Of a stretch of DNA of 40,477 nt, positions 26,848-28,858 are shown piece after piece. The notes under the pieces are model-generated. The model did not search any database. It saw only the letters and a program-made list of their open reading frames with translations, and had not been told where the DNA came from. The position numbers and the translations under genes are program-made. This stretch comes from Escherichia phage P694. Each line of letters starts with the position of its first letter. Within the stretch, counting starts at the first letter, position 1. Where the stretch lies: the sequence record NC_028863.1, one strand, 5' to 3'.

Positions 26848-26872
26848 TAATACGACTCACTATTGGGAGAGA
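26848..26872 (+). promoter_or_regulatory. Phage RNAP promoter (phi10-like) with an extended structured leader
   Basis: TAATACGACTCACTATTGGGAGAGA; 146-nt leader to the gene 10 ATG. Confidence 0.85.
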
Positions 26873-27018: not shown

Positions 27019-28062
27019 ATGGCTAACATGACTGGTGGACAACAGATTGGTAAGGATCAAGGTAAAGGCATGAGCGCTGGCGATAAACTGGCTCTGTTCC
27101 TGAAGGTCTTCGGTGGTGAAGTTCTGACTGCATTTACCCGTACCTCCGTAACTATGAACAAACACCTCGTGCGTTCTATTCAGTCCGGTAAGTCCGCGCA
27201 GTTCCCTGTGCTGGGTCGTACCAAAGCTGCTTATCTGCAACCGGGTGAGAACCTCGATGACAAACGTAAAGACATGAAGCACACTGAGAAGACCATTAAC
27301 ATTGATGGTTTGCTGACTGCTGACGTTCTGATTTACGACATCGAAGACGCAATGAACCACTATGACGTGCGCTCTGAGTATACTGCTCAGTTGGGCGAGT
27401 CTCTGGCTCTGGCTGCTGATGGCGCGGTACTGGCTGAAATGGCTAAACTGTGTAACCTCCCGGCTGCATCCAATGAGAACATCGCCGGTCTTGGTACTGC
27501 AAGTGTACTGGAAGTAGGCACTGCGGCTGACCTGCAAGGTGACCAAGTGAAGCTGGGTCAGGCAATCATTGCACAGTTGACTCTGGCTCGTGCTCGTCTG
27601 ACTAAGAACTACGTGCCGTCTGCTGACCGTACCTTCTACACCACTCCGGATAACTACTCCGCGATTCTGGCTGCTCTGATGCCTAACGCTGCCAACTATC
27701 AGGCGCTGATTGACCCGTCTACTGGTTCTATCCGCAACGTCATGGGCTTTGAAGTAATCGAAGTTCCTCACCTGACTGCTGGTGGTGCTGGTGATGACCG
27801 TCCAGAAGAAGGCACAAGCCCGTCTGGTCAGAAACACGCATTCCCTGTGACTGCTACGGGTGACACTAAGGTTGCTCTGGATACCGTTGTTGGTCTGTTC
27901 TGCCACCGCTCTGCCGTTGGTACTGTGAAGCTGAAAGACATGGCGCTGGAACGTGCTCGTCGTGCTAACTATCAGGCTGACCAGATTATCGCTAAGTACG
28001 CTATGGGTCACGGTGGTCTGCGTCCAGAAGCAGTAGGTGCACTGGTTTTCAAAAAGGCTTAA
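27019..28062 (+). CDS. 10A: Major capsid protein (10A)
   Basis: 347 aa; MA.MTGGQQ.G..QGKG N-terminus and near-identity to T7 gp10A across the protein; AAGGAGA RBS. Confidence 0.98.
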   Translation: MANMTGGQQIGKDQGKGMSAGDKLALFLKVFGGEVLTAFTRTSVTMNKHLVRSIQSGKSAQFPVLGRTKAAYLQPGENLDDKRKDMKHTEKTINIDGLLTADVLIYDIEDAMNHYDVRSEYTAQLGESLALAADGAVLAEMAKLCNLPAASNENIAGLGTASVLEVGTAADLQGDQVKLGQAIIAQLTLARARLTKNYVPSADRTFYTTPDNYSAILAALMPNAANYQALIDPSTGSIRNVMGFEVIEVPHLTAGGAGDDRPEEGTSPSGQKHAFPVTATGDTKVALDTVVGLFCHRSAVGTVKLKDMALERARRANYQADQIIAKYAMGHGGLRPEAVGALVFKKA

Positions 28063-28187
28063 CTTCTCGCAAACTCGTAGGGGACAATGAGTCCCTTACT
28101 GAAGTTGAGCAAGAGCTAACGCCACAGCAGAAAGCTGCTCGTACCCGTGCTGCTAACAAGGCGGCAAAACTAGCTGCTGAACAGTAA
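27019..28187 (+). CDS. 10B: Minor capsid protein (10B) by programmed -1 frameshift near 28044..28050
   Basis: GGTTTTC at 28044..28050; the -1 frame stays open for 45 codons (QKGLTSRKLVGDNESLTEVEQELTPQQKAARTRAANKAAKLAAEQ) to TAA 28185..28187, resembling the T7 10B tail as recalled. Confidence 0.6.
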
Positions 28188-28198
28188 TAACTATATGA

Positions 28199-28239
28199 AA
28201 CCCCTTGGGTGCCTTCGCGGGTGCTTGAGGGGTTTTTTT
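28199..28239 (+). terminator. Intrinsic terminator for phage RNAP (T-phi-like)
   Basis: AACCCCTTGGGTGCCTTCGCGGGTGCTTGAGGGGTTTTTTT: GC-rich hairpin plus a 7-T run, close to the T7 T-phi sequence. Confidence 0.85.
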
Positions 28240-28258
28240 CAACTCACTAATGGGAGGA
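28234..28258 (+). promoter_or_regulatory. Truncated phage-promoter-like core immediately after the terminator (phi11-like)
   Basis: TTTTTTCAACTCACTAATGGGAGGA keeps the -9..+6 core but lacks the upstream TAATACG. Confidence 0.4.
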
Positions 28259-28267
28259 CATTTAACC

Positions 28268-28858
28268 ATGCGCTCATATGAAACAACGCTTGAGACAGGC
28301 GAAGAGTTGTCTGCTGTCAACGACATCTTGGCCTCTATCGGTGAACCTCCAGTATCAACCCTTGAGGGTGATGCCAACGCAGACGTAGCGAACGCTCGAC
28401 GTATCCTCAATAAGATTAACCGTCAGATTCAGTCCAAAGGCTGGACGTTCAACATTGAGGAAGGTCAACAGCTGCTACCTGATGTGTTCAACGGATTGAT
28501 TCCCTACATGTCTGACTACTTGGCTGTGTTCTCGGATGGCGGTGCCACTGCCTATGTAAACCGTGGTGGCTACGTCTATGACAGAACCAACGCTACCGAT
28601 GTGTTTAAGGCTCCAATCACTGTGACCATCATCCGACTGCGAGAGTTCTACGAGATGCCTGAATGCTTCCGCTACTGGATTGTCACCAAGGCTGCTCGAC
28701 AGTTTAACAACCGATTCTTTGGTGCTCCTGAGATTGACGCTGTGTTGTCCGAAGAGGAACAAGAAGCGAAGATGCAGTGTGCCGAGTACGAACTGGACTT
28801 CGGTAACTTCAACATGCTTGATGGCGATGCCTTCACTGGTGGTCTGCTGTCTCGCTAA
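28268..28858 (+). CDS. 11: Tail tubular protein A
   Basis: 196 aa from ATG 28268; near-identical to T7 gp11 over ...[52 protein letters not shown]... Confidence 0.95.

Follow-up and report, generated by a model that had tools for sequence, protein, structure and literature searches.

The window analysed here, a stretch of 40,477 nucleotides of phage DNA, belongs to a T7-like phage of the genus Berlinvirus (subfamily Studiervirinae, family Autographiviridae). The segment 27019..28250 was 99.7% identical to Escherichia phage pO103, with the major capsid gene likewise at 99.7% nucleotide identity, and was 88–94% identical to other Berlinviruses, among them P483, BP12A, FE44, BA14, and Kvp1. The gene 10 locus comprises the following features.

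26848..26870, plus strand: promoter for the phage RNA polymerase upstream of gene 10 (phi10 equivalent), a perfect match to the consensus
27019..28062, plus strand: gene 10A, major capsid protein, the zero-frame product of the open reading frame (347 aa, 36.8 kDa)
28044..28050, plus strand: putative slip site G_GUU_UUC (Val343-Phe344), GGTTTTC in the register CTG GTT TTC
28050..28187, plus strand: predicted 10B-specific extension in the −1 frame, 45 codons followed by TAA at 28185..28187
28197..28236, plus strand: Tφ-type terminator hairpin followed by a T run, from the fold and a terminator scan; a possible distal frameshift stimulator

The promoter consensus TAATACGACTCACTATTGGGAGA was present in 8 copies in the window compared with 0 expected, and the record of Kvp1 annotates a promoter at the place equivalent to 26848..26870. 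The gene 10A product matched the Pfam family PF21703 (Gp10A-like; E 7.8e-106), and its reading frame closes with the codons CTG GTT TTC AAA AAG GCT TAA, the stop codon occupying 28060..28062. The heptamer GGTTTTC lies four codons ahead of this TAA. Over both strands of the window GGTTTTC was not enriched (4 occurrences, 4.9 expected); the copy at 28044..28050 was the sole one on the plus strand and the sole in-register copy in a long open reading frame. The corresponding T7 motif has been described as a variant of X_XXY_YYZ in which X_XX is G_GU (PMC5009743). G_GU is an imperfect motif for re-pairing in the P site, which counts against the frameshift reading, and a literature search with GGUUUUC returned papers on eukaryotic viruses only.

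Translation of the −1 frame from 28050 gave QKGLTSRKLVGDNESLTEVEQELTPQQKAARTRAANKAAKLAAEQ (sense codons 28050..28184). The full 10B would be join(27019..28050, 28050..28187), a protein of 344 + 45 = 389 aa and 41.3 kDa that ends in ...KAAKLAAEQ, and the peptides specific to it in this phage would be YAMGHGGLRPEAVGALVFQK, GLTSR, and LVGDNESLTEVEQELTPQQK. The original prediction had placed GGTTTTC at 28044..28050 just before the 10A stop, followed by a 45-codon −1 open frame that ends at 28187 immediately upstream of a T-phi-like terminator. The coordinates and register of the heptamer were correct, the open frame was borne out by translation, and its stop codon was located 10 nt before the Tφ-type terminator. 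The terminator hairpin is GC-rich with an 18-bp stem, carries CCCC at 28201..28204 on its 5' arm, and follows the 10B stop in the relatives as well.

No ATG, GTG, or TTG codon in the window offers a start of the extension's own that gives at least 20 residues in its frame, and the extension is therefore reachable only from gene 10. Readthrough of the 10A stop codon was excluded as a route, since the extension is read in −1, and translation that continued in the zero frame would meet TAG six codons past the TAA. Among the long open reading frames of the window, at least 45 stop-free codons followed 2.5% of the −1-frame positions, and the density of stop codons in these frames (0.10 per codon) corresponds to a chance of about 0.009 for 45 codons. 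The frame remained open in 11% of trials when the segment was subjected to mononucleotide shuffling; because of this, the open 45-codon frame in this one sequence alone is only suggestive. With the single-sequence case being only moderate, it was the comparative evidence that decided for the frameshift reading.

For comparison, we assembled 80 loci with 10A relatives from IMG/VR together with the records of T7, Kvp1, BP12A, and pO103; some 370 phage records in all match the region. The −1 frame was open for at least 125 nt beyond the 10A stop in 33 of 34 distinct loci with an in-register GGTTTTC, with at most 46 nt in the +1 frame of such loci. Where no slip motif was recognised, and in many cases GGTCTTC stood in its place, the median −1 run was 63.5 nt. 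The heptamer was invariant, or replaced only by the variants A/CGTTTTC or GGTTTTT, in all relatives with a 10B-type tail, and the record of BP12A, a phage that shares the 14 bases GGTTTTCAAAAAGG with the window, labels it a 'potential frame slippage site'. An alignment of the tails spanned about 38 loci and contained a conserved block.

28116..28160, plus strand: coding block for the conserved 10B-tail motif LTPQQKAARTRAANK, found in 30/30 complete non-Ig tails

The motif LTPxQxAARTRAANK was common to all 30 complete non-Ig tails, encoded by 20 distinct nucleotide versions, and takes the form LTPxQKAARTRAANK in this phage. A peptide pattern served to locate the block; it matched every one of the 30 tails, so that none was selected away. 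Across the 20 nucleotide versions, codon changes in the 10B frame were synonymous in 98 cases and non-synonymous in 7, and all 15 third codon positions varied; for the two remaining frames the synonymous to non-synonymous counts were 2:94 and 1:90. Such a pattern is the hallmark of translation, and in the 10B frame purifying selection on the block is strong. A natural relative (L011) carries a stop codon inside the tail, a hint that loss of the complete tail can occur. The claim of a conserved T7-type frameshift in gene 10 is supported by the relatives, where an in-register heptamer goes together with an open −1 frame.

Protein evidence within the genus comes from the Kluyvera phage Kvp1, a Berlinvirus with 89% nucleotide identity to the window across gene 10 and with the same heptamer, hairpin, and terminator. 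In its record, 10B appears as a joined CDS. Kvp1 virions gave a 43.6-kDa band in SDS-PAGE, from which MALDI peptides covering 10B-specific residues were recovered along with peptides shared with Gp10 (PMC2579914), and the authors (Lingohr et al. 2008) concluded that a −1 frameshift takes place at TTTTCA (PMC2579914). We recomputed the masses of the reported ions. The values for m/z 2244.123 (residues 353–372) and m/z 2372.219 (residues 352–372) were 2244.124 and 2372.219, respectively, and the ion at m/z 2692.310, corresponding to the junction peptide YAMGHGGLRPEACGALVFQQGLTSR, which ends in ...GALVFQQGLTSR, was matched at 2692.308 with carbamidomethyl-Cys and oxidised Met, both modifications being assumed for this fit. 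The recomputed masses place the shift at Phe-Gln. The Kvp1 tail comprises 48 residues and ends in ...KARKEAELAATE, in contrast to ...KAAKLAAEQ in the window.

The tail is annotated as a free-standing CDS in ETEP21B, fPS-53, Lilpapawes, and AP5, in keeping with a small 'minor capsid protein' ORF that is initiated separately, and the short homopolymer runs at the site could be taken to favour transcriptional slippage, in which the phage RNA polymerase would lose one base at the T4 or the A5 run. Separate initiation would have to do without the start codon sought above, and the runs have just 4 and 5 bases. Polymerase slippage is usually seen at runs well longer than this. The 43.6-kDa protein of Kvp1 is moreover a fusion that shares peptides with Gp10 (PMC2579914), which speaks against separate initiation, and we regard both of these routes to the tail as exceedingly improbable, the least credible of the explanations considered.

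Beyond the genus, the locus was compared with other gene 10 systems. T7 (NC_001604) reads GTG GTT TTC AAA GTG GAG TAA, with the heptamer in the same register as in the window, three codons ahead of the 10A stop rather than four, and its record joins the 10B CDS across the heptamer to give products of 345 aa (10A) and 398 aa (10B). The original prediction had noted a resemblance to the T7 10B C-terminus and called for an alignment; BLASTP of the two tails now substantiates it with 25 identical residues out of 50 (50%; pairwise E 2e-12). The similarity was concentrated in the C-terminal half, where both tails carry LTPxQxAARTRAANKA, whereas the first halves were unrelated in sequence and the tail lengths differ (45 codons in the window, 56 in T7). 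In both phages a Tφ terminator with CCCC follows closely on the end of the tail. The share of T7 translations that yield 10B is about 10% (PMC1635266). The record of MmP1 annotates gp10B as a −1 frameshift product, and the Kayfunaviruses K1F and EcoDS1 have the heptamer and tail as in the window, although the RefSeq record of K1F lists 10A alone. T3 and phiYeO3-12 likewise make a minor capsid protein with a C-terminal extension, through a −1 shift close to where the homologous gene ends. The T3 type slips at Lys codons, CCCAAAG in T3-like loci, whereas no CCCAAAG occurs near the 10A end in the window; its extension is about 90 residues long (250–280 nt in T3-like loci) and has been described as Ig-like (PMC5009743), compared with the 45 residues of the window tail, which is of the T7 type.

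Folding of the sequence downstream of the heptamer revealed a structured element.

28057..28110, plus strand: bipartite stem-loop, a candidate proximal frameshift stimulator, from the fold and covariation

The stem-loop begins 6 nt past the heptamer and includes the 10A stop codon. It is predicted to consist of an outer helix of 10 bp (28057–28066 paired with 28101–28110), a 5' internal loop of 10 nt (28067–28076), and an inner helix of 9 bp (28077–28085 paired with 28091–28099) closed by a 5-nt loop (28086–28090). The minimum free energy was −25.3 kcal/mol (z −4.19), and none of 200 shuffled sequences was as stable. Nine distinct sequences were aligned without gaps; in this set, 99.4% of the cells were paired and 9 of the 19 pairs showed compensatory changes, while slid controls reached 30–53%. 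Extension of this set by two Minipunaviruses and ETEP21B gave 12 sequences from four lineages, with 98.7% of cells paired, compensatory changes at 10 of the 19 pairs, and slid controls at 31–51%; this larger set was aligned with a covariance model and is slightly biased towards the structure. The inner helix of the L014-type (identical here to Helsettvirus fPS-53), Minipunavirus, and L035 lineages has an almost wholly different sequence at equal length and position. The unpaired CUCGCAA in the internal loop is invariant. For the T7 group, an analogous stem was predicted to start 5 nt past the heptamer; the T7 hairpin departs from that of the window in sequence and in details. Analysed separately, the T7 group showed no double compensatory change in this stem, its members offering too little divergence, and the covariance model of the Berlin type gave weak scores on the T7 group (13–20 bits, T7 itself 16.7) that were anchored on the heptamer.

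A scan of 27900..28300 against Rfam gave no meaningful match (the sole match was SpF22, E 0.3), and an IMG/VR search for hairpin variants with the loose pattern TGGTTTTCNNNNNNGCTTAA returned mostly unrelated chance matches and was not used. Stimulatory structures are commonly found about 5–9 nt downstream of a slip site. The spacer of 6 nt is also close to the distance of 5 nt between motif and pseudoknot in an E. coli reporter (PMC4066793). We found no description of the proximal stem-loop in the literature examined; in the Kvp1 paper, a stimulator was sought in the terminator region only ('pseudoknot 144 bp downstream'), and the proximal hairpin does not appear (PMC2579914). Judging from its position and conservation, the stem-loop at 28057..28110 is likely to act as a proximal stimulator. 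That gene 10 frameshifting is stimulated mainly by this element, with a shape kept in Berlinvirus, the Helsettvirus type, Minipunavirus, and one further lineage and an analogue in the T7 group, is a more tentative proposal, which we consider possible rather than probable. The first half of the tail, variable between lineages, overlaps the stem-loop, and the second half is kept at the peptide level, which suggests that the former is constrained by RNA structure and the latter by protein function.

The conserved RNA structure and the terminator in this region could also be read to mean that no recoding occurs, the −1 frame being a relic or one held open by RNA constraints (mRNA stability, 3'-end formation, or RNase III processing) and the hairpin having nothing to do with frameshifting. 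The shape of two helices with an asymmetric internal loop resembles the RNase III processing signals of T7 and counts in favour of such constraints; in addition, many database records annotate 10A alone, and L011 tolerates its stop in the tail. Constraints on the RNA are at odds with the distal block, which lies outside the hairpin and in which synonymous changes prevail (98 versus 7) with third positions saturated, and a lack of recoding is contradicted by the 10B peptides in Kvp1 virions and by T7 10B, an established product. We therefore consider it very improbable that the frame goes untranslated. A narrower alternative, in which the frameshift itself is real and the hairpin serves mRNA processing or stability, could still hold.

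A further question concerns the bases on which the ribosome would slip, as this phage has a second motif right behind the heptamer.

28050..28056, plus strand: second potential slip motif C_AAA_AAG, adjoining the heptamer, non-conserved

The bases after the heptamer are AAAAAG in the window and AAAGTG in T7, by which difference the window gains the second slippery motif. Should the −1 shift occur mainly on C_AAA_AAG, through tRNA-Lys on AAG, the product would have Lys345 in place of Gln345, with its length and tail unchanged. In E. coli, A_AAG was the most slippery tetramer when a stimulator was provided, ahead of U_UUC, and C_AAG reached 0.93% (PMC4066793). The motif is nevertheless not kept among the relatives, which read AACAAG (Kvp1), AAAACG, ACAGCG, or AAAGTG (T7) at this place, while GGTTTTC is; Kvp1, in which AACAAG leaves no second slip motif, produces 10B all the same. 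The covarying stem, furthermore, stands 0 nt from the AAG as against 6 nt from GGTTTTC, and E. coli tetramers without a 3' stimulator shifted barely over background (PMC4066793). A shift mainly on C_AAA_AAG is thus improbable, if less so than a frame that goes untranslated, and the motif is probably a minor second contributor at most.

The E. coli dnaX gene offers a likeness to the window: bacterial ribosomes shift by −1 on its motif, and a stem-loop follows within a few bases. The dnaX motif is A_AAA_AAG, whereas the conserved motif of the window is G_GUU_UUC and its AAAAAG is preceded by C, varies among relatives, and directly adjoins the stem. The dnaX cassette has its stem-loop 5–6 nt downstream of the motif and an element of the Shine-Dalgarno type about 10 nt upstream, and the window has no conserved upstream element of the Shine-Dalgarno type; the shift rate is about 50% in dnaX compared with about 10% in T7 gene 10. 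AGGTG at 28035..28039 was considered as such a stimulator and set aside, as only 4 nt separate it from the heptamer and relatives have AGGCG instead.

The terminator may represent a second, distal element. The CCCC of the T7 terminator, more than 200 nt downstream, has been reported to be involved in the frameshift by a mechanism left unexplained (PMC5009743), and according to the same review the published T7 work favours the distal terminator element over a proximal hairpin (PMC5009743). By analogy with T7, the terminator region may add to the slip in this phage, where the CCCC is about 150 nt from the slip site compared with about 180 nt in T7. As a side observation, inspection by eye for a GGGG in the hairpin or spacer that could pair with the terminator CCCC revealed a run of at least four G in the Berlin-type, the L014-type, L035, and most members of the T7 group. 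No complement to the loop CUCGCAA was found by eye within 28110 to 28240.

Taken together, we consider it very likely that gene 10 of this phage gives two capsid proteins, 10A and 10B, by a −1 frameshift at G_GUU_UUC. In the proposed mechanism, most ribosomes would terminate at the TAA at 28060 to yield 10A (347 aa). A minority would slip by −1 on G_GUU_UUC with the Val tRNA in the P site and the Phe tRNA in the A site, the tRNA-Val re-pairing from GUU to GGU and the tRNA-Phe from UUC to UUU. For these ribosomes, reading would continue from CAA 28050 through 45 more residues up to the stop TAA at 28185, giving 10B (389 aa). The slip would probably be promoted by the conserved bipartite stem-loop 6 nt downstream, and perhaps also by the terminator region. 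The presence of 10B in virions is taken from T7 and Kvp1, and by the same analogy with T7 the efficiency would be in the range of about 10%.

The T7-type 10A/10B system has long been known, is established across Studiervirinae, and has already been demonstrated in this genus; the covarying proximal hairpin adds a modest, testable element. The record of pO103 annotates 10A only and lacks 10B, and 10B should be added to the annotation of this phage, pO103, K1F, and the many records with 10A alone or with a free-standing 'minor capsid protein' ORF. Since the 10B tail is the attachment point in T7 display, it is also relevant to the engineering of Berlinvirus capsids. The research value is limited to the hairpin, a candidate proximal stimulator that can be tested directly; the stimulatory signals of this classic frameshift were still unexplained in a 2016 review. 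If the stem-loop is real and new, it would set a conventional proximal element beside the unexplained long-range terminator effect of T7, and if it does stimulate, the invariant unpaired CUCGCAA would be a candidate contact site.

The slip site at which ribosomes would leave the frame of the major capsid protein 10A (G_GTT_TTC, window 28044..28050) was compared with the gene 10 loci of relatives. Escherichia phage ETEP21B carries G_GTT_TTT in its place (L209:165-171), a change that is synonymous for Phe, and both the hairpin downstream of the slip site, a candidate frameshift stimulator, and the tail that extends 10A to 10B are intact; in the ETEP21B record, this tail is annotated as an ORF of its own, a 'minor capsid protein'. 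The Kayfunaviruses EcoDS1 and K1F have an in-register CTG GTT TTC (L210 and L211, about 320-480), followed in the −1 frame by the tail QPSGVSTFSQPNVATVAAAPEEETLTPQQKAARTRAANRAAKLAESNN. Only 10A is annotated in the RefSeq entry of K1F, and the EcoDS1 record carries the remark 'region of similarity to gp10B'.

Within the hairpin, one segment was found unchanged in nine sequences from three lineages, with covarying helices on both sides:

window 28066..28072, CTCGCAA, from the pair that closes the outer helix into the start of the 10-nt 5' internal loop

CTCGCA is retained in Minipunaviruses. Read in the 10B frame, the segment encodes Ser/Pro-Arg, and its conservation could reflect either the peptide or an RNA contact; inspection by eye of window 28110 to 28240 found no complement to CTCGCAA. 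In one IMG/VR contig (L011:2226-2300), a single G-to-T change converts codon 20 of the 10B tail from GAG to TAG, cutting the tail off upstream of the conserved LTPxQKAARTRAANK motif, and the covariation alignment shows this same base as the sole unpaired cell of the outer helix. The truncation by this stop suggests that natural loss of the full 10B tail is possible.

Variation was also observed between gene 10 and gene 11. In the PYPS50-type locus L015 (2226-2440), a Shine-Dalgarno sequence lies directly 3' of the 10B stop, together with an additional ORF (TAAGGAGGAAATACCATG...); in other Berlinviruses the terminator occupies this position, and L015 has an insertion between the two genes. The Yersinia pestis AKS phages, which gave two-piece matches in the sequence search, were grouped with the L015 insertion. 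Just beyond the terminator in the window lies a further element:

window 28240..28258, CAACTCACTAATGGGAGGA, just 3' of the terminator

This element matches the phage promoter consensus in the 3' two-thirds of the latter, without the TAATACG part, and may represent a gene 11 promoter, located upstream of that gene, in weakened or truncated form; a phi11 promoter is annotated at the equivalent position in the Kluyvera phage Kvp1. Compared with its close relative pO103, the window differs in length (40,477 versus 39,837 bp) and in the start of gene 10 (27019 versus 22707), and therefore has either another start point or extra sequence (a terminal repeat or permutation) relative to the pO103 record.

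The same slip site was also found ahead of an unrelated-looking extension. In eight loci (L008, L020, L022, L052, L059, L061, L067, and L078), an in-register (G/C)GTTTTC leads into a very different −1 tail of 89-96 residues, Ig-like in appearance (e.g. ...VTGVTLSQATMSLQIGNTKTL...). One of these, L008, encodes a 10A that is 95% identical to that of the window and has the same terminator. The 10B extension therefore appears to undergo modular exchange, with retention of the slip site.
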